Assembly (NCBI GenBank): GCA_965214975.1
Contig: OZ244055.1
Location: forward strand, 452,875-516,874
Origin: Alphaproteobacteria bacterium
Lineage (GTDB): Bacteria > Pseudomonadota > Alphaproteobacteria > MPNO01 > UBA830
Direction of reading: 5' to 3'
Length of the DNA: 64,000 nt
Positions 1 through 57,364 of this stretch are shown in pieces. The notes beneath the pieces were generated by a model that saw nothing but the letters and a program-made list of their open reading frames with translations, was not told the DNA's origin and ran no database searches. Position 1 is the stretch's first letter, and each line of letters begins with the position of its first letter. Position numbers and translations under genes: made by a program.

Positions 1-514
1 GGCGTTGAGCTTCCTGGCGACAGCCCGCCCCATGACCTGCAACGCCACCCGCCGGGCCTCGACCGCCTGGAAGTCCTCGACCACGTCCTCGCCGATCAGG
101 CGCCCGGCCTCGGCCCCGGCCTCGTGCGCGACCGACGACCGGAGCCCCCCTTTTTGCCGGCGCGGCCGGCTTGCGGGCGTCCAGCCGTGCATCGCATATC
201 CGGCCGCTGATCTCGACCAGTTCGCGCACCAGCGCGCGCAGGCGACGGAACTCCGCGATCTCGGCCCGCGTTTCCTCGACGGCATCGGCGGGGACGGTGC
301 GGCCCCGGGTCTTGCCCGTCTCCCTGTCCGGCCAGGTCAGCAACCAGTAGGGGCCGTGTCCCCGCGCGCCTTCGGCCGCGCAGTGGCAGGTGGGCTTGCC
401 GCATTTGCGGTGCTGTGCCCTGAGCGAGCCCTGGCGGAGGTCGCCGATGTCCGCCAGCTCCCGCAGGAGCTGGCCGCGCCGTTCGACGAGGCCGTCGCGT
501 TCGGCGGTCGCCAT
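1..514 (-). mobile_element. IS transposase, 5' portion only (gene runs off the window); N-terminal Cys/His zinc-motif domain
   Basis: Minus-strand ATG at 514 gives MATAERDGLVERRGQLLRELADIGDLRQGSLRAQHRKCGKPTCHCAAEGARGHGPYWLLTW... From memory, the CGKPxCxC..HGPYW motif matches DUF6788-type N-termini of ISKra4/ISNCY-like transposases. Left of the C6T5 run (145-155) the protein-like reading moves to another frame (..AGRLIGEDVVEDFQAVEARRVALQVMGRAVARKLNA). Not in the ORF track because no stop lies in the window. Confidence 0.45.
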
Positions 515-729
515 GTCCGTCTCCTTCTGTATCTCGGTAAAGGAAACCGAAATCGTGGCGGAACCACGGCGTTTCTCAACCCCTCAAATCCTGACGTGCA
601 CCCCCGGAAAGTCCGGACCTTGCCTGCCGGGCGGTTGTCGGATACGGTGCGCGCACGCGGCGCGGGCGACGGACCGGCCGGCGCGCGAAATCGAAAACGG
701 CGAAACCTGACGGGAAGAGGGGCGGATCA

Positions 730-3700
730 ATGGGCGCGCACCGGCGAGAGAACTGCGGCACGATCTCCGGAATCCGCAACGACCGGCACGGAACCGTTCG
801 CGGCACGCCCCCCCCCCCCCGGTCCGGCGGCGAGAGCGCGGCTGGCCTGCCTGGCCCTGCCGTGCGCCGTCGCCCTGGCGGTCATGTCGCCGACGGCCGC
901 CCGGGCGCAGGTCCACGTCAGCAACGATGTTGCCGGAAACTTTTTCGTGGACGGCCCGACGCAGGGCAGCGCCTCGAGCGAGAGCACGCTCCATCTCGCC
1001 CAGCCGTTCACGACCCCTTCGGGATCCGGCGGCATCCCCCTCCGGAACGTCGTTCTGCACTTCACCTCCATGCCCCTCTCGCTCGGTCAGGTGAAACTGT
1101 ACCTGTACCGGGCCAAGGCGAACCCGAACCCCACGAGCCCCCCGGCCTTCGCCCCGACGGTTCCGGATTCGGGCACGGTCGACTCGACGACCAACGAGCC
1201 CGCGGCCGCGGGCCGGCTTGCCGAATTCGCGACCCCCGTGAGCCTGGGGGGAGGCAGGTACCGGTTCGCCGCGCCCGCGAACACCGCTCTCGACGCGGCC
1301 ACCACGTACCATCTGTATCTGTGGTCGGTGGCGAACCTGACCGGGCCCGAATGGAGATCGGTGGACATCACCAGAACCCCCGGCGGCGCTCCCGGCGACG
1401 CGGGTTTCACCGGGCACAACTCCCAGTGCCCGCCGGGCGGCTGGGCTCTCCTGCGCGGGCTGAGCGCCGACGTGAGAAACCCCGGCGGCGAGGGCTGGAT
1501 CCCCGATGGCAACGGCAGGCTCGTGTACGTCACGGAGATCGTCGGAGAGCCGAACCACACCCCCAGCGGGAGCCCGGCGATCGCGGGAACCCAGACGATC
1601 GGCGAGACGCTGACGGCCGGCCCCGGGGATCTCGCCGACCTGAACGGCGCGCTGTCGTCGTTCGTCTACGAGTGGTTCCGGACCGACGCCGACGGGACGA
1701 ACTCGCAGGCCATTCCCGGCGCGACCTCCCCGACCTACACCCCGACGGAAGACGACGAGGGCAGACGGCTCCGGGTGCAGGTGACGTTCACCGACGCCGA
1801 CTGCTACGAGCAGACGACGAGCGTCCTCGCCGCCAACACGTTCGCCGAGGGCCTGGCGCTGGAGGCGGAGGGCGGCACGGCGCAGGTCGGCAAGACCCTG
1901 ACGGCGGAGACCGGCGGCATCGCGGACGCCGACGGCCTGCCGTCCTCGCCCGCGTTCACCTACCGGTGGACGCGGGTGGACGCCGACGGCGTGTCGAACC
2001 CGGAGGACATCGCCGGCGCGACGTCGCGGACCTACACGCCGGTCGAGGCCGACGAGGGCAAGCGGGTGCGGGTGACGGTGGGTTTCGCGGATAGCGACGG
2101 CCACCGCGAGGCGGTCGGCGCCCTTTCCGCGCCGATCGCGGAAAGGGCGCCCGCGGTCATCACCGTCGCGGCGGGCGGAAGCGTGACCGAGGGCGCGCCC
2201 GCGATCTTCACGCTGACCCGCACCGAGGAGCTCGCCATCGCGCTGGCGGTCGAGGTCACGGTGTCGGAAACCGGCGACATGGTCGCCGCGGGCGACAAGG
2301 GGACGCGGACGGTGACGTTCGGCGCGGGCGCGACCACCGCGACGCTGGAGGTGCCGACCGCGGACGATTCCGCGGTCGAGCCGGACAGCACGGTGACCGT
2401 CGCCGTCCAGGACGGCGACGGCTACGTCCCGGGCACGCCGTCGGAGGCCGAGGTCGTGGCGGAGGACGACGACCCGGCCGTCACCGTCGCGGCGGGCGGC
2501 AACGTGACCGAGGGCGCGCCCGCGATCTTCACGCTGACCCGCACCAGGGACACCGCCATCGCGCTGGCGGTCGAGGTCACGGTGTCGGAAACCGGCGACA
2601 TGGTCGCCGCGGGCGACAAGGGGACGCGGACGGTGACGTTCGCAGCGGGCGCGGCCACCGCGGCGCTGGAGGTGCCGACCGCGGACGATGACGCGGACGA
2701 GCCCGACAGCACGGTGACCGTCGTCGTCGAGGACGGCGGCGCCTACGACCCGGGCACGCCTTCCGAGGCCGGGGTCGTGGCGAGGGACAACGACGGGCCT
2801 CCGGTCGTCACCGTCGCGGCGGGCGGCAACGTGACCGAGGGCGCGCCCGCGCGTTTCACGCTGATCCGCACCAAGGATCCCGCCGCCGGGCTGGCGGTCG
2901 AGGTCACGGTGTCGGAAACCGGCGACATGGTCGCCGCGGGCGACGAGGGGACGCGGACGGTGACGTTCGGCGCGGGCGCGGCCACCGCGGCGCTGGAGGT
3001 GCCGACCGTGGACGATTCGGAGCGAGAGCCGGACAGCACGGTGACCGTCGCCGTCGAGGACGGCGGCGCCTACGACCGGGGCACGCCTTCCGAGGCCGGG
3101 GTCGTGGCGTCGGACAACGACCATCCGGTCGTCACCGTCGCGGCGGACGGAGACGTGACCGAGGGCGCGCCCGCGAGCTTCACGCTGACCCGCGCCGGGG
3201 ACATCTCCGCCGCGCTGGAGGTCGAGGTCGCGGTGTCGGAAACCGGCGACATGGTCGCCGCGGGCGACGAGGGGACGCGGACGGTGACGTTCGCAGCGGG
3301 CGTGGCCACCGCGGCGCTGGCGGTGCCGACCGTGGACGATTCCGCGGACGAGCCCGACAGCACTGTGACCGTCGCCGTCGCGGACGGCGACGCCTACGAC
3401 CCGGGCACGCCTTCCACCGCCGCCGTCGTGGTGGCGGACGAAGACGAGCCGGCGGTCGTCACCGTCGCGGCGGGCGGAGACGTGACCGAGGGCGCGGCCG
3501 CGAATTTCACGCTGACCCGCACCGGGGACGCCGCCACCGCGCTGGCGGTCGAGGTCGCGGTGTCGGAAACCGGCGACATGGTCGCCACGGGCGACAAGGG
3601 GACGCGGACGGTGACGTTCGGCGCTGGCGCGGCCACCGCGGCGCTGGCGGTGCCGACCGTGGACGATTCCGCGGACGAGCCGGACAGCACGGTGACCGTC

Positions 3701-5302
3701 GCCGTAGCGGACGGCGGCGCCTACGACCGGGGCACGCCGTCGGAGGCCGGGGTCGTGGTGGCGGACAACGACGAACCCGCACCTTCCTCCGTCGTCACTA
3801 GGCGGACGAAGGCGACGACCTACAACCTCTCCGCCATCGGGCGCGCAGTCACCAAGACCGTCGTCAACCGGGTCTGGGACCGTGCCGCGCGCCTGGATTC
3901 AGGGGACGTCCCGTCGTTTGCGACGGTTGGCGGACGCGTCGTCGACGCCGGCGCGCTCGCCGACGCGCGGCGCGTGTCCGGGGCGGTCGCCGGGCTTTTC
4001 GGGGCCGGCGGCGCGCCCGGGAGCGCGCGGGGCGCGGCGGCGGACTTCCACGCCCCGGACGCCGGCGGATACCGGGATCTGAAGCGGGGGCTGCTGCCCG
4101 ACGCCCGCAGCCTCCTGGGGCGGACCCGGTTCGAGCTGCGGCCGGGCGGCGCGGGTTCCGGCGCGACCGGCTCTCTCGCGGTCTGGGGGCGCGGCGACTT
4201 CACCGCCTTCGAGACCAGGGTCGAGGACGACGACATCGCGGACTTCTCCACCGAGGGCGAGGTGTTTTCCGGCCATGTCGGCGTCGACTACAGGCCCGGC
4301 CCGGGGTTCCTGGCCGGCATCGCGGCGGGGCATTCCCGGGGCGAGGCGAGCTACGCCTTCGCCGACCGCCCCGGCGTCCGGGACGACATGAAAACCACGC
4401 TCTCGAGCGTCCATCCCTATCTGCACTGGATGCCGTCGCGCGGCCTTCGCGTGTGGGGCACGGTCGGCTACGGCACCGGCACGGCGACCATCGTCGAGGA
4501 CGCGGTCCGGACCGAGACCGACCTCACGATGCGGACGGTCGGAGGCGGGGCGCGAAGCGAGATCTCCCGCCTCGACGGGACCGAGGTGGCGGTCAAGGCG
4601 GACGCGTTCCTCACCGAGATCGAGGCCGACGCGGCGGGCGGCGGGCGGACGCTCGCCGGGACGACGGCCGAGGCCAGCCGGATGCGGGCCGCCGTGGAAG
4701 GCGTCCGCAGGTGGGCTCTCGAGGAGGGGGACAGTCTCTCCGGGACGCTCGATCTCGGCGTGCGCATGGACGGCGGGGACGCCGGGGCCGGCGCCGGGGC
4801 GGACGTCGCCGGCGAGCTGCGCTACGCTGCTCCCCGGGACGGTCTCGAGGTGGCGTTGCGGGGCGGCGCGCTTCTCGTCCACGAGGCCGACGGCGTCGCG
4901 GAGTGGGGCCTCGGACTGCAGGTGGTCTACGATCCCGGCGTCCCCGGCAGGGGCGTCCGGCTCGCGCTCGGCCCCGCCTGGAACGTCCCGCGGTCGGGCG
5001 TGGCCGAGGCGATGTGGAACGCCGATGCGGGGTCCGGGGTCCGGAGCGGGGCATCGCCGGACCGGGGCGGCGCGGTCGTCGCCCGCCTGGGCTACGGCAC
5101 GGTCGCGCTGCGCGGCCGGGCGCTGGCGACGGCGTTCGGGGAGGCCGGCGGCGACGGCGACGGCGCCCGCCTGCGCCTGGGGACGGAACTGCGGCCGGCG
5201 GGCGCCGGCCGCCGGTTCGGCCTCGGGATCCACTGGGAGAGGCGGGATCTCCGGGCCGGCCCGGAACATGCGCTCGGGATGAGGCTCGGCCTCGAATTCT
5301 AG
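730..5302 (+). CDS. Type Va autotransporter adhesin with Ig-like and Calx-beta-like repeat passenger; start unresolved (leader ATG 730 is +1 out of frame across the C13 tract)
   Basis: Track ORF 5..5302. After the tract it encodes a signal peptide (ARARLACLALPCAVALAVMSPTAARA/QV) and Ig-like repeats (..TYTPTEDDEGRRLRVQVTF..). Five ~108-aa repeats follow (VTVAAGGxVTEGAPAxFTLTR..SETGDMVAAGD..EPDSTVTV). The C-terminal beta-barrel (..VWGRGDFTAFE..HPYLHWMP..) ends in GMRLGLEF. Confidence 0.85.
808..820 (+). repeat. C13 homopolymer between the leader ORF and the adhesin signal peptide
   Basis: Counted directly: 13 consecutive C (808-820). Read as PPPP in both the ATG-730 frame and the adhesin frame. 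Confidence 0.95.
2155..3780 (+). repeat. Five in-frame tandem coding repeats, period 321-327 bp (type A Calx-beta-like module)
   Basis: The GTCACCGTCGCGGCGGGCGG motif recurs at about 2158, 2479, 2806, 3130 and 3457. Five near-identical antisense ORFs in the track (2032..2391 to 3394..3690) mirror the periodicity. Confidence 0.9.
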
Positions 5303-47984: not shown

Positions 47985-50900
47985 TCAGAAGGCGACGCCG
48001 CCCTTGAGCACGACCAGGCCGTCCGGCCGGCCCCGGTCCCCGCGCCGCTCGCCGTAGAGCTCGAGGCCCGGTCCCGCGGTCCCGCGCAGCCGGAACTCCA
48101 CGCCGAGGCGGACACGGTCGTCGTCGCCGGACCGCCCCAGCTCGCCGAACGCCGTCGTCACGGCGCGGTCCCGGAGCACCCCCCACCCGTAGCCCAGGCG
48201 GGCGTCGAGGGACGCGCCGCCGCCGCCGCCGCCGCGGCCCGCGGCGCCGGGGTCGGCGTTCCACATCGCCTCGGCGACGCCGCGCGCCGGCGCGCCCCAG
48301 GACGGCGCGAGCCGGAGCCGCAGGCCGCGGCCCCGGACCCCCGGATCCCAGTCCAGCCCGAGGCCGAGGCCCCACTCCCGGAAGCCGCTTTCCTCGTGGG
48401 CCAGAAGCGCGCTGCCGCGGCCCCGGATCTCGAGACCGGCATGCGGCAGGACGTAGCCGAAGCCCAGCGCGAGGTCGGCGCCCGCGCCCCGCTCGGCGTC
48501 CCCGTCGTCGAGACGCGCGCCGAGCTCGAAACTGCCGGCGAGCTCGCCGCCGTCCGCGAGCGCGCGGCGGGAGCTTCCCTCGAGGGCCAGACGCACCCGG
48601 GACGCCGCGGCGTCGACCTCCAGGAGCTCGTCCTCCACGCCGTCCGCGGACACCGTCGCGTGGAACGCGTCGGCCTTCACCGCGAGACCGACCCCGCCGA
48701 CCGACGCGAGATCGTCCCGGACCCCGGCGGCGACCGTGCGCATCTCGACGTCGGTCCCGACCGAGCCGTCCCGGTCCGCGATCTCCGTCGAGCCCCTGCC
48801 GTAGCCGGCCGTCCCCCAGACGCCGAGACCCGTCGGCGACATCCAGTGCACGTAGGGATGCGCGCTCGTCAGGGTCGTCTCCACGGCGCCGCCGCCGTCG
48901 CCGCCGCCGAAGGCGTAGTCGATGTCGCCGACCGTGCGGCTCACCGCGACCCCGGCAAGCAGGTCGTCCCGGAAGCGGTGGTCGAGACCGAGATGCGCGG
49001 CGAAGATCCCGCCCTCGCTCGAGAATGCGCCGATCCGGTCGTCGTCCTCGTCCAGCCCGTCGCTCCCGACCTCGGTGAACGTGCCGCGGCCCCACAGCGT
49101 GAGACCGCCCGCGGCCCCGCCGTCCCCGCCGGGCGACAGCGCGAACGCCGTCCGTCCCAGCAGGTCGCGGCCGTCGGGCGGCGCCAGCCCGCGGAAGCCG
49201 TCGGCGGAACCGCCGCCGGGGCCGTGGCGGCGCTCCGCGCCGCCGGCGTCGCCGGAAACGCCGCCGACGCCGCTGACGCCCATGAGGCCGGCAAGGACGC
49301 CGGCCGCGGGCGCGCCCGGCGCCAGGGGCTGCCCGCCCACCGTCGCGCGCGAGCCGGCGTCCCCGGAGCGGTGGCTTTCGGCGCGGTCCCAGACCAGCTC
49401 GACAACGTTCGCCGCCACCGTCCGGCCGGTGGCGGCGAGAACGTACCTCAGCGCCAGCGCGCGCCTCTCGCTCCGCCCCGCGCCCAGATCGTATCTCGCC
49501 TCCCACCCCTCGTCGTTGTCGGAGACCCGGGCCGCGTCCACGTCCACGAGCCTCACGGTCGCGGCCTCGGTCTCCCCGTCGACCTCGACCGCGACCGTCA
49601 TTCCGGTGTCGCCGCGCTCGAACGTCAGGGTTCCGGCTTCCTCCTCCCCGTCGCGCGCCTTCACGTAGCCGACCCCGAGGGCTTCGCGCGCGGGCCACGG
49701 CCGGTCCAGGCCCACCGTGAACGCGACGGTCGCCGTCTCCCCGACGGCGGGCCTCTTCACCGACCCCGGCGCGGGCGCGGCCACCGACAGCACCGGCCGG
49801 GCGGCGAGCCAGTGCTCCGTTCTCCGGGGCTCCGGCAGCAGGACGTTGGTCGAGCCCGTCAGCCCGAGCTCCACCACCTCGGCGGCGTCGCCGGCCTCCA
49901 CCTCGACCGTTCTCCGGGTCTCCCCGTGCTGGAACGTCAGCAGCCCGGAAACGGCGCCGCCCCCGTCCACGACCGTCTCGTGGTCGACCGTCACCAGGTC
50001 GTCGCCCGGCCCCGTCGGCGGATCCAGCGCGACCGTGAAGGTGACGGTCCCGGCCTCGTCCGCGGCCTCCACCGACAGCCGGCGGTCGTCGTCGCGGACG
50101 GTCCCGAGACCCCGGCCCGTCCCGATCTCGTATCCCGCGGCGCTCGTGACGCTGTCCAGCGTGACCACCACGAGCCCGTCGCTCTCGGCCTCCCTGTCGC
50201 CCTCGACCGTCGCCACGATCGTCTTCGCGGTCTCCCCCGGCGCGAACGCCAGCGTGCCGGTCGTCGCGCGCATGTCCCGCTCGGCGAGCCTGACCTCCGC
50301 CGCGCCCGTCACGGTGTAGTCGACGCTCACCGGACCGTCCGCGGCTTCCGACAGCGTCACCGGGAACCGGAGTTCCGCGGGGCCCCCGTCGCCCTCGACG
50401 ACGCTCGTCGACCCGACCCAGACCGCCGGACCGGACGTCCCGCGCGCGTCGTCGTTCCGGATCGTGCCCGTCCCGCGGTGCCTGCGGAGCAGCGCCCCGC
50501 CGGTCGGGTCCGAGAGCGTGACCACGACCGTCTCGTCCAGCTCGAAAACCCCGTCGCCCTTCACCGGGACCGTGACCGTCTGCCTGGTCTCCCCCGGCGC
50601 GAACGCGACCGAACCGGCCTCGGGGGCGTCGTGGTCCCTTCCGGCCTCCGCCGTGCCCCCAACCGTGTAGTCGACGACGACCTCCCGGTCCGACGCCGGC
50701 GCCAGCGTCACCGCGAACGCCAGGTCCGTCGTCCCGGAATCGCCCTCGTCCACGCTCGGCGAGTCGATCGAGAGCGCCGATTCGTCGTCGTCCCTGATCG
50801 TGCCCGTGCCGGTGCCGGTCCCGATCGTCGCGCCGCCGGTCGCGCCCGACAGCGCGATCTCCACCGTCTCGTCGTTCTCGTCGATCCCGTCGCCCCTCGC

Positions 50901-53900
50901 CGCGACGGTGATCGTCTTGCCGCTCTCGCCGGGCGCGAACGCCAGCGTGCCGCCCGCGACCGCCTCGTAGTCCTCTCCGGAGGTCGCCGTGCCGCCTCCC
51001 GAATCCGCCCAGTCGACCGTGACCCGCCGGTCCGAGACCGGCGCCAGCGTCACCGCGAACACCAGCTCCGACGTCCCCGAATCGCCCTCCGCGACCTCGG
51101 GCGAGCCGATCGAGAGCGCCGCCTCCTCGTCGTCCGCGATCGTCCCCGCGCCGGTGGCGGTCCCGATCGTCGCGCCGCCGGTCGGGTTCGAGAGCGCGAT
51201 CTCCACCGTCTCGTCCTCCTCGTCGATCCCGTCGCCGTTCACCGCGACCGTGACCGTCCTCGTGGTGTCCCCGGGATCGAACGCCAGCGTGCCGCCCGCC
51301 ACCGCCTCGTGGTCGGTCCCGGAGGTCGCCGTGCCGCCGCCCGAATCCGCCCAGGCGACCGTGACCCGCCGGTCCCAGGCCGGCGTCAGCGTCACCGTGA
51401 ACACCAGGTCCGACGTCCCGGAATCGCCCTCGGCGACGCGCGGCGAGTCGATCGCGAGCTCGGGAGCCTCGTCGTCGACGATCGTGCCCGTGCCCGCGGC
51501 GGTCCCGACCGTCGCGCCGCCGGTCGGGTTCGAGAGCGCGATCACGACCGTCTCGTTGCCCTCGACGGCGTCGTCGCCGGTCACCCTGACCGTGACCGTC
51601 TTCGCGCTCTCGCCGGGCGCGAACGTCAGCGTGCCGTCCGCCACCGCCTCGTGGTCGGTCCCGGAGGTCGCCGTGCCGCCGCCCGAATCCGCGTAAGCGA
51701 CCGTGACCTGCTGGCGCGAGACCGGATCCAGCGTCACCGTGAACACCAGCTCCGCCGTCCCCGAATCGCCCTCGTCCACCCGCGGCGAATCGATCGAGAG
51801 CGACGGGATGTCGTCGTCGACGATCGTGCCCGTGCCCGCGGCGGTCCCGATCGTCGCGCCGCCGGTCGCGCCCGAAAGCGCGATCACGACCGTCTCGTCG
51901 GCCTCGTCGGTCCGGTCGCCGGTCACCTTGACCGTGACCGTCTTGCCGCTCTCGCCGGGCGCGAACGTCAGCGTGCCGTCCGCCACCGCCTCGTGGTCGG
52001 CGCCGGAGGTCGCCGTGCCGCTGCCCGGATCCGCGTACCCGACCGTGACCCGCCGGTCCGAGACCGGATCCAGCGTCACCGTGAACACCAGGTCCGCCGT
52101 CCCGGAATCGCCCTCGTCAACGCTCGGCGAATCGATCGCGAGCGCCGCCTCGTCGTCGTCCGCGATCGTGCCCGTGCCCGTGGGGGTCGCGATGTCCGCG
52201 CCGCCGGTCGCGCCCGAAAGCGCGATCACGACCGTCTCGTCGAGCTCGTCGATCCCGTCGCCGTTCACCCTGACCGTGACCGTCCTCGTGCTGTCCCCGG
52301 CCGCGAACGTCAGCGTGCCGCCCGCCACCGCCGCGTGGTCGGCGCCGGAGGTCGCCGTGCCGCCGCCCGAATCCGCCCAGGCGACCGTGACCTCGCTGTC
52401 CGAGACCGGATCCAGCGTCACCGTGAACACCAGGTCCGCCGGCCCCGAATCGCCCTCGGCGACGCTCGGCGAATCGATCGAGAACTGCGGGGTCTCGTTG
52501 TCGACGATCGTGCCCGTGCCCGTCGCGGTCCCGAGCGCCGCGCCGCCGGTCGCGCCCGAAAGCGCGATCTCCACCGTCTGGTTGCCCTCGCCGACGTCGT
52601 CGCCGGTCACCGTGACCGCGATCGTCTTGCTGCTCTCCCCGGCCGCGAACGTCAGCGTGCCGCCCGCCACCGCCTCGTAGTCCTCTCCGGAGGTCGCCGA
52701 GCCGCCGCCCGAATCCGCCCAGTCGACCGTGACCTGCCGGTCCGAGACCGGATCCAGCGTCACCGTGAACGTCAGCGTCGACGTCTCTCCCGCGTCGCCC
52801 TCCTCCGCCCGCGGCGAATCGATCGCGAGCGTCGCCTCGTCGTCGTCCCGGATCGTGCCCACGCCGGTCCCTTTCAGGATCTCGCCGCCTATCGGGCTCC
52901 CGAGCCCGAGCTCGACCGTCTCGTCGACCTCGTCGATCCCGTCGCCGTTCACCCGGACCGTGACCGTCTTCCTGGTCTCGCCGGGCGCGAACGCCAGCTC
53001 GGCGGAGGACACGCTCCGGTAGTCGGCGTCGGCGCCGGAGGTCGCCGTGCCGTTCCCGGAGTCCTCGTACCGGACCGAGACCTCGCTGTCCCACTCCGGC
53101 TCCAGCGTCACCGTGAACACCAGGCTGGCCGTCCCCGTGTCGCCCTCGACGACGCTCGGCGAGTTGATCGAGAACCCGGGAACCTCGTCGTCGACGATCG
53201 TGCCCGTGCCCTCGGCGGTTCCGATCGTCGCCCCGCCGGTCGCGCCCGAAAGCCGGATCACGACCGTCTCGTCGTCCTCGAAGGCGTCGTCGCCGTTCAC
53301 CGCGACCGTGACCGTCTTCGTGCTCTCGCCGGGCGCGAACGTCAGCGTGCCGCCCGCCACGGCCTCGTGGTCGGTCCCGGAGGCTGCCGTGCCGCCGCCC
53401 GAATCCGCGTACCCGACCGTGACCCGGCGGTCCGAGACCGGCTCCAGCGTCACCGTGAACACCAGGTCCGCCGTCCCGGAATCGCCCTCGTCCACCCGCG
53501 GCGAATCGATCGCGAGCGACGCCTGGTCGTTGTCCGACACCGCGACATCGGCCTCGGACGGCGAGCCCGGGTCGTGGTCGCCGCCGTCGACGACGGCGAC
53601 GGTCACCGTGCTGTTGTCCTCGTCCACGGCATCGTCCGCGGTCGGCACCTCCACCGTCGCGGTGGCCGAGTTCGCGCCGAACGTCACCGTCCGCGTCCCC
53701 TCGTCGCCCGGGGCGACCATCTTGCCCGTTTCCGAGACCGTGACCTCGACCGCCAGCGCGACCGCGAGGTGCCCGTCGCGGGTCAGCGTGAAACGCGCCG
53801 GCGCGCCCTCCGTCACGTCGCCGTCGGACGCGACGGTGACCACCGGAACGTCGTCGTCCGACACCACGACGTCGGCCTCCGAAGGCGTGCCCGGGTCGTA

Positions 53901-55199
53901 GTCGCTGCCGTCCACGACGGTGACCGTCACCGTGCTGTCCGGCTCGTCCGTGGAATCGCCCTGGGTCGGCACCGCCAGCTGAAAGACGCCCGAGTTCCTG
54001 CCGAACCTCACCGTCTTCGTTCCCTCCTCGCGCGCGGCGACCATCCTGCCCGTTTCCGACACCGTGACCTCGACCGTCAGCGCGGCGGAGCGGTTCCCGG
54101 TGCGGGTCAGGTTGAAACGCGCGGCCGTGCCCTCCGTCACGTTTCCGGCGGACTCGACGGTGACCATCGGATCGTCGTCGTCCGACACCACCACGCCGGC
54201 CTCGGACGGCGTGCCCGCGACGTAGCCGTCGCCGGCCGCGACGGCCACGGTCACCGTGCTGTCGGGCTCGGACGCGGAATCGGCCTGGGTCGGCACCGTC
54301 ACCGTCGCCGTGGCCGAGCCCGCGGCGAACGTCGCCGTCTTCGCCCCCTCCTCGCCCGCGGCGACCATGTCGCCCGTCTCCGAGACCGTGACCCCGACCT
54401 CCAGCTCGGCGGCGGTGTTCCCGGCGCGGGTCAGCGTGAAACTCGCGGCCGTGCCCTCCGTCACGTCGCCGTCGGACGCGACGGTGACGGCGGTCCCCGT
54501 GACGACGATGTCGAAGGTGACCGTGTGGGCGATGGCGGGCTCCCACTTGCTGCTGGTGGTCGTGTAGGTCACCGTCGTGGTGCCTGTCCCGGTCGGGGTG
54601 CCGGACAGGACGCGGGTGGCCGGGTCGAAGGACAGTCCGGGCGGCAACCCGGTCAGCGCGTAGCTGCGGTCTTTGTCGTTGTCGCCGGTCGTCGCCTCGA
54701 GCGTCACGGGGGTGATGCCCGTGTCCAGGTCGACGTTCAGGTTGTCCGGTGTGGGAAAAAAGTCATCGGGATAGTCAAGGAGATGAAAATCGATGTTGGC
54801 GCGCGTGGCCGTGGCGCCGGCGTCGTCGGTGACCGTGTAGTTGAAACTACGGATCACGCAGGGGATGCCCGTGCAGGAGTCGCCGTAAGCCCCCCCGGAA
54901 GAGTCGGGCGGGTTGCCGGACAGGACGCGGGTGCTCGGGTCGAAGGACAGCCCGCTGCGCGCCAGCCCGCCCACCGCGTTCACCGAGTAGGTGTAGGGTG
55001 CGGTGCCGCCGGTGGCCTCCGGCAGGGTTATGGAGATGTTCCTTCCCGAGACGAAGGCATGGTCGAAGGAGACCGCCCCCAGGGACAACGGATCCTGGGC
55101 CTGGGCGGACAACCCGGGGAGGAAGCACGCCATGACCGCCGCCGCCGACAGGAAGGCGAAGGGCCGGCGGGCGGCGGGCGGGCCGCTCCGACGACTCAC
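47985..55199 (-). CDS. Giant type Va autotransporter adhesin (He_PIG-like Ig domains, 3 type A + 10 Calx-beta repeats, C-terminal beta-barrel). The conservative start is GTG 55199; an ATG leader at 55287 is +1 out of frame across a C10 tract
   Basis: Track ORF 47985..55331. Signal peptide RRPFAFLSAAAVMACFLPGLSAQA/QD. ..GLPPGLSFDPATRVLSGTP.. Ten repeats of the IDSPxVxEGDSGT..FTVTL..V.YAD.GGGTATSG.D..AV.GTLTFAPGE..KTV.V.V.GD...E..ETV.I.LS form. The barrel ends ..LVVLKGGVAF. Confidence 0.9.
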   Translation of the reverse strand: MSRRSGPPAARRPFAFLSAAAVMACFLPGLSAQAQDPLSLGAVSFDHAFVSGRNISITLPEATGGTAPYTYSVNAVGGLARSGLSFDPSTRVLSGNPPDSSGGAYGDSCTGIPCVIRSFNYTVTDDAGATATRANIDFHLLDYPDDFFPTPDNLNVDLDTGITPVTLEATTGDNDKDRSYALTGLPPGLSFDPATRVLSGTPTGTGTTTVTYTTTSSKWEPAIAHTVTFDIVVTGTAVTVASDGDVTEGTAASFTLTRAGNTAAELEVGVTVSETGDMVAAGEEGAKTATFAAGSATATVTVPTQADSASEPDSTVTVAVAAGDGYVAGTPSEAGVVVSDDDDPMVTVESAGNVTEGTAARFNLTRTGNRSAALTVEVTVSETGRMVAAREEGTKTVRFGRNSGVFQLAVPTQGDSTDEPDSTVTVTVVDGSDYDPGTPSEADVVVSDDDVPVVTVASDGDVTEGAPARFTLTRDGHLAVALAVEVTVSETGKMVAPGDEGTRTVTFGANSATATVEVPTADDAVDEDNSTVTVAVVDGGDHDPGSPSEADVAVSDNDQASLAIDSPRVDEGDSGTADLVFTVTLEPVSDRRVTVGYADSGGGTAASGTDHEAVAGGTLTFAPGESTKTVTVAVNGDDAFEDDETVVIRLSGATGGATIGTAEGTGTIVDDEVPGFSINSPSVVEGDTGTASLVFTVTLEPEWDSEVSVRYEDSGNGTATSGADADYRSVSSAELAFAPGETRKTVTVRVNGDGIDEVDETVELGLGSPIGGEILKGTGVGTIRDDDEATLAIDSPRAEEGDAGETSTLTFTVTLDPVSDRQVTVDWADSGGGSATSGEDYEAVAGGTLTFAAGESSKTIAVTVTGDDVGEGNQTVEIALSGATGGAALGTATGTGTIVDNETPQFSIDSPSVAEGDSGPADLVFTVTLDPVSDSEVTVAWADSGGGTATSGADHAAVAGGTLTFAAGDSTRTVTVRVNGDGIDELDETVVIALSGATGGADIATPTGTGTIADDDEAALAIDSPSVDEGDSGTADLVFTVTLDPVSDRRVTVGYADPGSGTATSGADHEAVADGTLTFAPGESGKTVTVKVTGDRTDEADETVVIALSGATGGATIGTAAGTGTIVDDDIPSLSIDSPRVDEGDSGTAELVFTVTLDPVSRQQVTVAYADSGGGTATSGTDHEAVADGTLTFAPGESAKTVTVRVTGDDAVEGNETVVIALSNPTGGATVGTAAGTGTIVDDEAPELAIDSPRVAEGDSGTSDLVFTVTLTPAWDRRVTVAWADSGGGTATSGTDHEAVAGGTLAFDPGDTTRTVTVAVNGDGIDEEDETVEIALSNPTGGATIGTATGAGTIADDEEAALSIGSPEVAEGDSGTSELVFAVTLAPVSDRRVTVDWADSGGGTATSGEDYEAVAGGTLAFAPGESGKTITVAARGDGIDENDETVEIALSGATGGATIGTGTGTGTIRDDDESALSIDSPSVDEGDSGTTDLAFAVTLAPASDREVVVDYTVGGTAEAGRDHDAPEAGSVAFAPGETRQTVTVPVKGDGVFELDETVVVTLSDPTGGALLRRHRGTGTIRNDDARGTSGPAVWVGSTSVVEGDGGPAELRFPVTLSEAADGPVSVDYTVTGAAEVRLAERDMRATTGTLAFAPGETAKTIVATVEGDREAESDGLVVVTLDSVTSAAGYEIGTGRGLGTVRDDDRRLSVEAADEAGTVTFTVALDPPTGPGDDLVTVDHETVVDGGGAVSGLLTFQHGETRRTVEVEAGDAAEVVELGLTGSTNVLLPEPRRTEHWLAARPVLSVAAPAPGSVKRPAVGETATVAFTVGLDRPWPAREALGVGYVKARDGEEEAGTLTFERGDTGMTVAVEVDGETEAATVRLVDVDAARVSDNDEGWEARYDLGAGRSERRALALRYVLAATGRTVAANVVELVWDRAESHRSGDAGSRATVGGQPLAPGAPAAGVLAGLMGVSGVGGVSGDAGGAERRHGPGGGSADGFRGLAPPDGRDLLGRTAFALSPGGDGGAAGGLTLWGRGTFTEVGSDGLDEDDDRIGAFSSEGGIFAAHLGLDHRFRDDLLAGVAVSRTVGDIDYAFGGGDGGGAVETTLTSAHPYVHWMSPTGLGVWGTAGYGRGSTEIADRDGSVGTDVEMRTVAAGVRDDLASVGGVGLAVKADAFHATVSADGVEDELLEVDAAASRVRLALEGSSRRALADGGELAGSFELGARLDDGDAERGAGADLALGFGYVLPHAGLEIRGRGSALLAHEESGFREWGLGLGLDWDPGVRGRGLRLRLAPSWGAPARGVAEAMWNADPGAAGRGGGGGGASLDARLGYGWGVLRDRAVTTAFGELGRSGDDDRVRLGVEFRLRGTAGPGLELYGERRGDRGRPDGLVVLKGGVAF
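50100..54495 (-). repeat. In-frame tandem coding repeats: about 10 Calx-beta units (50100-53525) and 3 type A units (53525-54495), period about 320-345 bp
   Basis: Periodic GTGTI(V/R/A)DD(D/E) boundaries in the translation. The type A units share the SETG(D/R/K)MVA..EPDSTVTV core with adhesin 1. Confidence 0.85.
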
Positions 55200-55214
55200 T
55201 GGATCGCGCTCCAA

Positions 55215-55224
55215 GGGGGGGGGG
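55215..55224 (-). repeat. C10 (sense strand) homopolymer just upstream of the adhesin-2 signal peptide
   Basis: Counted directly: 10 consecutive G on the plus strand (55215-55224). Confidence 0.95.
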
Positions 55225-55577
55225 CACGGGACTGGTGCTGTGCACCTTTTCCGTCCCGCAGCGACCAAGCCCTGTTTTTCCCGCCATGCTTCCGTCTCCC
55301 GCTTCCTCGACCCGACCGAGAACGGACCCAAGGTAGTGCCCCCGACCGCATGGCGTCAACCGGCCCCGGGAGGTCGCGGATTGCAGGGCAGCGATCGCCG
55401 GCGTGGGCGCGGCGGAGACGGGTGGCGGACTTCCCCGATGCGGTCCGAAGCGTTCCCGCGTTGCCGGTCGGCGTGGGGCGGGCGCCGCTCGGGCGGCGAC
55501 GGGTCGGCCGACCGCGGGCTCGATGCAGCCGTGGTTGCAGAGCGTGCGGAGCCGCCGCGGAGCGTTGCGCCGGACCA

Positions 55578-56481: not shown

Positions 56482-56557
56482 CGGGGCCGTAGCTCAGTTG
56501 GGAGAGCGCAGCGTTCGCAATGCTGAGGTCAGGGGTTCGACTCCCCTCGGCTCCACC
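56482..56557 (+). tRNA. tRNA-Ala (anticodon CGC)
   Basis: Hand-folded cloverleaf: GGGGCCG/CGGCTCC acceptor with G3:U70, anticodon loop TTCGCAA, T-arm AGGGG-TTCGACT-CCCCT, encoded CCA; 76 nt. Confidence 0.92.
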
Positions 56558-56665
56558 AGTCCCCGTGCACCATCCCCCCTTCTCCGCAGGCCTCGCCGGA
56601 GACGCGCCCGGTCACCCGAGAGCGGGCGCCTTCCCCGACGGCGGCCCGCGCGGGCCTGCCCGCCG

Positions 56666-57121
56666 TCACGACGACAGGCGGGCGATGTCCGCAAGCACCT
56701 CGTCGGGGTGGGCGGCCGGCTTGACCGTGTCGTAGGACGCGGCGACGGCTCCGTCCGGGCCGACCAGCACGGACTTGCGCGGCGAGCGTCGGCTGTCCGG
56801 TTCCGACACCCCGTAGGCCGTCGAGACGGCGCCGTCGACGTCGCTCAGCAAGTCGTAGGGGAACGCGAATTTCTCGCGGAACGCCCGGTTGTCGGCCTCG
56901 CTGTCGTAGCTGATGCCGACCACGGCCGCGTCGTGGTCGTTGAAGTCCTGGATTCGATCACGGAATCCCTTGCCTTCGATGGTTCAGCCGGGCGTGTCGG
57001 CCTTGGGATACCACCAGAGAAGCAGGTAGCGGCCGGAAAAGTCGTCCTTCCCGACCGGGATTCCATCCTGGTTGGGCAAGTTGAAGTCGGGCGCGTCGGC
57101 GCCCGCGGCGATCAGGACCAT
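56666..57121 (-). CDS. bcp: Bcp/PrxQ-type peroxiredoxin with in-frame TGA at the peroxidatic-Cys codon (candidate selenoprotein, or a pseudogene)
   Basis: Minus-strand ATG 57121: MVLIAAGADAPDFNLPNQDGIPVGKDDFSGRYLLLWWYPKADTPG-TGA-TIEGKGFRDRIQDFNDHDAAVVGISYDSEADNRAFREKFAFPYDLLSD.. The TGA (56986-56984) replaces C in the conserved PKADTPGCT motif. The track lists only the 3' part (56666..56923). Confidence 0.75.
56942..56977 (-). promoter_or_regulatory. Candidate bacterial SECIS hairpin downstream of the in-frame UGA
   Basis: mRNA sense: UGA ACCAUC GAAG gcaag GGAUUC cgugauc GAAUCC agga CUUC. A 4-bp lower and 6-bp upper stem with a 7-nt apical loop containing G and U. The loop starts 24 nt after the U of UGA. 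Confidence 0.45.
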
Positions 57122-57172: not shown

Positions 57173-57364
57173 TCAGTAGTAGTCCGCCGCACTGCGCTTG
57201 CGGCATCTCAGGCACAGGCGGTTGTGCCAGCCCTCGCTCATGAACTTGTCGCCGCACGAAAGGCAGGAGCGTTCTCCCGGGACGCGGTGGATGGGCTGGA
57301 ATTCCTCCTCGACCGCCTCGTCGGTCTCGAGGGCCGTCGCCGGCGTCGTCTCGTTCATTCCCAT
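57173..57364 (-). CDS. Small hypothetical protein with a CxxC..CxxC zinc-ribbon-like motif (63 aa)
   Basis: ..ERSCLSCGDKFMSEGWHNRLCLRCRKRS..; acidic N-terminus. Confidence 0.55.
   Translation of the reverse strand: MGMNETTPATALETDEAVEEEFQPIHRVPGERSCLSCGDKFMSEGWHNRLCLRCRKRSAADYY

Follow-up and report, generated by a model that had tools for sequence, protein, structure and literature searches.

Peroxiredoxins with selenocysteine (Sec) are known from prokaryotes. The family 'Prx (COG1225/PF00578, TxxU)' ranked second in abundance among the Sargasso Sea's selenoprotein families (Zhang, Fomenko and Gladyshev 2005; PMC1088965), and 253 genes of the Prx family (pfam00578, TxxU) were reported from GOS (Zhang and Gladyshev 2008; PMC2398784). 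The supplements of these two surveys list the peptide LLWWYPKADTPGuTIEGNGFRDRIQDF under the entries AACY01271188 and JCVI_READ_560720 (PMC1088965, PMC2398784). A 2026 review places Prx (PF00578, TxxU) among the established prokaryotic selenoproteins and cites for it the enzyme of Eubacterium acidaminophilum (PMC13188914). This enzyme, PrxU of E. acidaminophilum (Sohling et al. 2001), is the experimentally shown Sec-peroxiredoxin.

Here we describe a peroxiredoxin gene with an in-frame TGA, located in a window of 64 kb (the whole stretch of DNA that was analysed). Its product is 73% identical to AACY01271188 / JCVI_READ_560720 over 128 residues. It has in common with the Sargasso/GOS Prx family the PF00578 domain, the PxxxTxxU motif (PMC13188914, PMC1088965), the position of Sec and the flanking peptide LLWWYPKADTPGUTIEG.GFRDRIQDF. 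There is no essential difference between them, and the Sargasso/GOS clade, like the window gene, stands as a computational prediction. Hence, the gene is a further orthologue, in a genome of 71% GC, of an already published selenoprotein clade, and it is not new. Its wider significance is limited, since the surveys of the Sargasso Sea (2005) and GOS (2008) had already described both the family and this clade. What is added here is a quantitative demonstration, on about 200 sequences, of RNA-level selection on the predicted SECIS of this family, together with two minor leads, namely a Cys4 mini-protein conserved upstream of the gene and a Cys form that retains the hairpin.

The similarity to PrxU of E. 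acidaminophilum is more distant. Both proteins are peroxidases of the AhpC/TSA fold with Sec, predicted in the case of the window protein, in place of the peroxidatic Cys; however, PrxU belongs to a different Prx subfamily, and the window protein is ~80 residues shorter than the PrxU model (151 aa versus 233 positions). The model NF040737 (peroxi_PrxU) scores the window protein with 43.1 bits at a cutoff of 270. The preliminary description of this DNA had mentioned PrxU-type Sec-peroxiredoxins; the matching family is 'Prx (COG1225, TxxU)', which is BCP-like, and not PrxU.

Results

A BCP-like peroxiredoxin gene with an internal UGA

In the list of open reading frames the gene appears as two pieces, one of 45 aa (56984..57121) and one of 85 aa (56666..56923). 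The minus-strand frame, if read through, has a single internal stop, a TGA, and no other disruption (Table 1). The context of this stop is WWYPKADTPG-TGA-TIEG, i.e. LLLWWYPKADTPG-TGA-TIEGKGFRDRIQDF. If Cys is put in for the stop, residues 7-128 of the product match Pfam AhpC-TSA PF00578 (E=2.8e-29), and the alignment spans profile positions 2-123 of 124. The preliminary description had already recognised a split 151-codon homologue of Bcp/PrxQ here, with its only in-frame TGA at the position of the catalytic Cys, and both points are borne out: in the alignment U46 occupies the column of the peroxidatic Cys in the Cys-type homologues P0058, P0066, P0070, P0085, P0090 and P0102.

Table 1. Positions of the features in the window and, where a locus is named, in related sequences
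Feature	Position	Strand	Basis or remark
Candidate 1-Sec BCP/PrxQ-like peroxiredoxin CDS, complete, 151 residues	56666..57121	minus	translation through the internal UGA; PF00578 match
Start codon ATG	57121-57119	minus	translation
Terminal stop TGA	56668-56666	minus	translation
Predicted Sec codon UGA, U46, peroxidatic position of P39-x3-T43-x2-U46	56984..56986	minus	alignment
Putative Shine-Dalgarno-like purine-rich stretch AGGGGAAA	57126..57133	minus	just 5' of the ATG; read from the sequence
Predicted bacterial SECIS inside the CDS	56942..56977	minus	fold, RNAalifold consensus, synonymous-site conservation
Lower stem GAAG/CUUC	56977-56974 with 56945-56942	minus	fold
Upper stem GGAUUC/GAAUCC	56968-56963 with 56955-56950	minus	fold
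Apical loop CGUGAUC, 7 nt	56962-56956	minus	fold
63-aa ORF, CxxC...CxxC (…SCLSCGDKFMSEGWHNRLCLRCRK…)	57173-57364	minus	directly upstream of the peroxiredoxin gene, same strand
tRNA-Ala(CGC)	56483-56558	plus	ARAGORN; 108 nt downstream of the peroxiredoxin gene, convergent
Giant repeat protein, 2448-aa ORF, at least 9 Calx-beta + He_PIG Ig domains	47985-55331	minus	
Giant repeat protein, at least 1765 aa, Calx-beta + Ig-like domains	5-5302	plus	open at the window edge
DDE_Tnp_1 transposase fragment, 239 aa	33311-34030	minus	E=2e-12; between MFS-transporter and TRAP-transporter genes
tRNA-Sec	L041 6106-6200	minus	ARAGORN; Rfam RF01852, 79 bits (gathering score 47)
P0066 gene, Cys-type, TGC at the catalytic codon, 52% identical	L084 1001-1450, L085 1001-1450		hairpin retained

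Among NCBIfam models the best matches of the protein are E. coli Bcp NF006960 (96.3 bits, cutoff 140) and PrxQ NF053650 (92.7 bits, cutoff 260), and its best PDB matches are the BCPs of Burkholderia (5enu), Sulfolobus (Bcp1, 3drn) and Xanthomonas campestris (5iiz). The predicted protein is thus BCP-like; it lies below the equivalog cutoffs of Bcp and PrxQ and so is not an equivalog of them. With the thioredoxin-dependent BCP/PrxQ thiol peroxidases it shares the monomer-sized Trx-fold of ~150-160 aa and the active-site motif, which reads P39-KAD-T43-PG-U46 in the window protein; R115 is invariant across the clade. However, the BCP/PrxQ enzymes carry Cys at the peroxidatic position (Cp), where the window protein has the predicted Sec.

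There is not a single Cys in the window protein. Earlier it had been said that no resolving Cys follows the UGA and that a Gly stands in its place; the absence of Cys holds, and is complete, whereas the residue at Cp+5 is K51 and not Gly, with G50 at Cp+4. By our reading of the alignment, the helix-alpha3 position is R82. With Cys at neither K51 nor R82, an intramolecular disulfide or selenenylsulfide cycle would not be possible. Cys is missing altogether in 54/84 sequences of the Sec clade, and the remainder have one Cys at scattered positions. No second Cys is therefore conserved, which points to a 1-Sec enzyme that would be re-reduced by an external thiol. In the Cys-type relatives, Cys is found in an 'LLCD' motif in 21 of ~47 proteins, where the Sec forms have Ser/Thr (window residue 93), and at Cp+5 in 10 of ~47. 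The gain of Sec thus accompanies the loss of the candidate resolving Cys.

TGA is retained in all related loci examined

A scan with one genome per GTDB species yielded 80 loci with 57-81% protein identity, nearly all of them from MAGs of uncultured Alphaproteobacteria/'Rhodospirillaceae'. Some orthologues lie on complete MAG chromosomes, e.g. OZ251539.1, OZ245815.1 and OX638326.1. WWYPKADTPG-TGA-T is present in 80/80 of these loci. Altogether the TGA stands at codon 46 in 83/83 related loci, including the 80 species-representative genomes, and in 84/84 aligned sequences. The metagenomes were scanned with a DNA pattern in which the hairpin comes after TGA, TGC or TGT; at least 120 contigs matched, and among the matches listed the codon is TGA in 120/120, though the pattern also permitted TGC and TGT. 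The question raised earlier, whether orthologues carry TGC or TGA at this codon, is thus answered in favour of TGA. Among the matches listed (L094-L213), the peptides before the UGA vary (FFPKADTPG, FYPRASTPG, WYPKASTPG and others) while the hairpin that follows is the same, and these genes come from soil and marine metagenomes.

In the protein search the top three matches (89, 85 and 77% identity) are C-terminal fragments of 84-85 aa. The corresponding contigs carry TGA at the same codon in 3/3 cases; two of them (L001, L002) show the identical split into 45 and 85 aa, and the third (L003) ends upstream of the gene. Apparently full-length homologues reach 75% identity. The 'full-length' database proteins P0001-P0038 have W at position 46, since the gene callers used code 4 for TGA. 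Further public entries of the family are fragments of 45 aa and 85 aa. Public metagenome protein sets thus systematically mis-annotate this family as Trp proteins or as fragments. True Cys forms occur among the homologues only at ~54% identity or lower.

In the 84 sequences the residues after the TGA are conserved while synonymous codons vary freely, and the same is seen before the TGA. This pattern implies that the downstream part is translated, and the comparison indicates that the amino acids on both sides of the UGA are under purifying selection.

The hairpin downstream of the UGA

The bipartite stem-loop of the preliminary description is present as drawn there. It begins 6 nt past the UGA, its loop begins 24 nt past the U of the UGA, and it is both the MFE and the centroid fold (-11.5 kcal/mol). 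For a sequence of 71% GC this stability is unremarkable (z=+1.5; 192/200 shuffles fold as well or better). Thermodynamic stability was therefore dropped as evidence, and the significance of the hairpin is a matter of its conservation only.

The hairpin lies within all the published bSECIS constraints (Table 2). Its loop CGUGAUC departs from the model in the 'mostly' sub-pattern, where N1 and N2 pair, and the hairpin has no similarity to the SECIS of E. coli fdhF. No Rfam SECIS family gave a match, either in the whole window at the gathering threshold or in a permissive scan of 56880-57040. The hairpin thus agrees with the constraints of the bSECISearch model, its spacing included, and is not recognised by the SECIS families of Rfam. 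A 5S match that appeared in the permissive Rfam scan was set aside as chance (E=0.11).

Table 2. The hairpin beside the bSECIS model (bSECISearch), as PMC13188914 gives it (its Fig. 2A)
Property	bSECIS model	Hairpin after UGA46
Apical loop	3-9 nt	7 nt
Upper stem	4-16 bp	6 bp
Loop sequence	G followed by G/U, in the first two positions of the loop	C-G-U..., with G and U at positions 2-3
UGA-to-loop spacing	16-37 nt	21 nt
MFE	<= -7.5 kcal/mol	-10.9 to -11.5 kcal/mol

For the RNA-level comparison, 66 nt around codon 46 were aligned in the 84 sequences. The RNAalifold consensus is the same bipartite structure. Standard pairs make up 99% of the sequence-by-pair cells, and 100% of those in the upper helix; in the slid control, where the 3' partner is shifted by 1-3 columns, the share drops to 13-63%. 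Double compensatory changes, which the preliminary description had advised to look for, are found in two upper-stem pairs: U-A to C-G in L029 and G-C to A-U in L065. As the stem hardly varies, the covariation is confined to these two events, each of them in one sequence.

Codon usage points in the same direction. The normalised codon entropy at conserved residues is 0.6-1.0 across most of the gene, with a few positions lower, and it is 0-0.49 at residues 49-57 (E, G, G, F, R, D, R, I), in the hairpin region. Phe is encoded by TTC in 83/83 sequences, Arg by CGT in 84/84 and Ile by ATC in 82/83, and the second Arg uses CGA/AGA only. Some of these codons are rare in the window genome (CGT 3.4% and CGA 1.1% of Arg, GAT 12% of Asp); given the peptide GFRDRI, the probability of the hairpin codon set under the codon usage of this genome is ~3e-6. 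By this comparison, the freezing of synonymous sites is confined to the hairpin. The predicted SECIS is conserved across a wider protein diversity than that of the WWYPKADTPG clade.

In three of the four distinct Cys-type homologues (L086, L087, L089) the peptide is the same or similar, the codons are other ones and the hairpin is absent. In the fourth, P0066 (L084/L085), TGC is followed by the same hairpin; hence the hairpin is not strictly exclusive to UGA genes. The P0066 hairpin, GGAUUC-CGUGACC-GAAUCC, uses the same codons as the Sec forms. It may be the fossil SECIS of a recent Sec-to-Cys conversion, or the gene may represent a pre-adapted Cys ancestor.

Search for the selenocysteine machinery

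SelA, SelB and SelD were not found in NCBIfam and Pfam scans that covered ~30 ORFs of the window, and their E. coli sequences, used as tblastn queries, gave nothing significant in the window and ~1.4 Mb of related loci. A weak GTPase-like match of SelB in L026 was dismissed. The tRNA-Sec gene (selC) is absent from the 64-kb window, whose sole tRNA is tRNA-Ala(CGC). One relative, L041, has a tRNA-Sec (anticodon TCA; ARAGORN and Rfam) at a distance of ~3 kb from its peroxiredoxin gene. The tRNA gene is flanked by unrelated genes (GST, GIY-YIG, flavin reductase), with no selB or other sel protein gene near it. In several alphaproteobacteria tRNA-Sec is nested in or adjacent to selB (PMC8124441); unlike in these, the tRNA-Sec of L041 stands alone.

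A search of the window for a second selenoprotein gene, by in-frame TGAs with coding-like GC3 flanks, returned only the peroxiredoxin codon and two ordinary gene junctions. A scan of all gathered sequence for TGA followed by a hairpin with an NGU loop gave just non-coding-looking noise.

Discussion

Alternative explanations of the internal TGA

One explanation, named as the alternative in the preliminary description, is that of a pseudogene or a sequencing error, in which a recent TGC-to-TGA nonsense change has killed an ordinary Bcp gene. A single in-frame stop does split the ORF, and no sel genes lie within the 64-kb window. However, the TGA is shared by 84/84 sequences from ~80 species and by 120/120 of the metagenome matches listed, purifying selection continues past the stop with no other disruption of the frame, and the hairpin is conserved and covarying. 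The related loci are not assembly duplicates of one source, as their identities of 57-81% demonstrate. The comparative data thus reject the nonsense change, and we give it practically no chance. An equally negligible chance is left to an alternative code, in which TGA would mean Trp or Gly throughout the genome, an assumption made by several gene callers for metagenomes. The W at position 46 of P0001-P0038 is what such a code would give; however, it is an artefact of code 4 applied to short contigs. TGA is an ordinary stop in the window, where it terminates 18/24 well-supported genes (those with full-length family matches), e.g. nuoL, nuoD, nuoF and rpsD and also the peroxiredoxin gene itself, and this excludes the alternative code. 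The scan of the window for in-frame TGAs gave none at conserved Trp/Gly positions of housekeeping genes, the genome with its 71% GC is alphaproteobacterium-like, and the peroxidatic residue is not replaceable by Trp or Gly.

There is slightly more room, though still very little, for expression without selenium, either by read-through with insertion of Cys or another residue by a near-cognate tRNA or a mis-charged tRNA-Sec, or as two peptides of 45 and 85 aa. An internal ORF for the 85-aa product does exist, with its GTG at 56923, and no Sec machinery was observed within the 64-kb window. The two-peptide version is contradicted by residues 47-66 (TIEGKGFRDRIQDF...), which lie between the UGA and the GTG and are conserved as protein; they are therefore translated in one frame with the N-terminus. 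Against selenium-free read-through stand the hairpin, which has the features of a SelB-type SECIS, the tRNA-Sec of a member of the clade, and the published family, which is treated as a selenoprotein.

Hence, we consider it very probable that the gene encodes a Sec-containing BCP/PrxQ-like AhpC/TSA thiol-peroxidase of the known 'Prx (TxxU)' family. With the same high confidence we read the TGA as a selenocysteine codon, where Sec insertion itself is inferred from the conserved anatomy. The conserved UGA speaks for the candidate selenoprotein of the preliminary description, and so do the hairpin, which is conserved and covarying, the purifying selection, the bSECIS constraints and the published orthologues.

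Proposed mechanism

Step 1: The ribosome would reach UGA46, and the stem-loop 10-45 nt downstream would act as a bacterial SECIS. The specialised elongation factor SelB with Sec-tRNA(Sec) would bind the loop C-G-U-G-A-U-C on the 6-bp helix. We suggest that selABCD is present elsewhere in the source genome.

Step 2: Selenocysteine would be inserted instead of termination, and the full-length enzyme of 151 residues would result, as the conserved anatomy suggests.

Step 3: The selenolate of U46 in the active site of P39, T43, U46 and R115 would reduce peroxides and become selenenic acid. An external thiol, e.g. thioredoxin, glutaredoxin or glutathione, would presumably bring the 1-Sec peroxiredoxin directly back to its reduced state.

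For annotation this means one intact gene with a translation exception at 56986-56984, and neither fragments, a pseudogene nor a Trp protein. The source organism (an uncultured alphaproteobacterium, high-GC and Rhodospirillaceae-like) would rely on selenium for some of its defence against peroxides.

Neighbouring genes and a possible partner

The 63-aa Cys4 ORF upstream of the peroxiredoxin gene is found at the same position in 22 related loci, with 50-94% identity (tblastn). It has no significant match to a Pfam or NCBIfam family, and its resemblance to a HypA-type zinc ribbon is weak (E=0.013). The Cys4 protein may be a resolving or reducing partner of the peroxiredoxin, or a metal or redox sensor. 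A dedicated Cys4 partner of the Cys-free peroxiredoxin and, separately, P0066 as a snapshot of the Sec-to-Cys change or as a pre-adapted Cys ancestor are ideas that we judge jointly to be rather unlikely. If the former were true, a two-gene selenoperoxidase module would be defined.

The tRNA-Ala(CGC) downstream of the gene was also labelled tmRNA by Rfam (RF00023, 47.6 bits at a gathering score of 47, with model positions 1-374 placed on 76 nt); this label is a clan-competition artefact and was rejected in favour of a plain tRNA. The two giant repeat proteins of the window are probably secreted or surface adhesin-like, and the DDE_Tnp_1 fragment may be an IS remnant.
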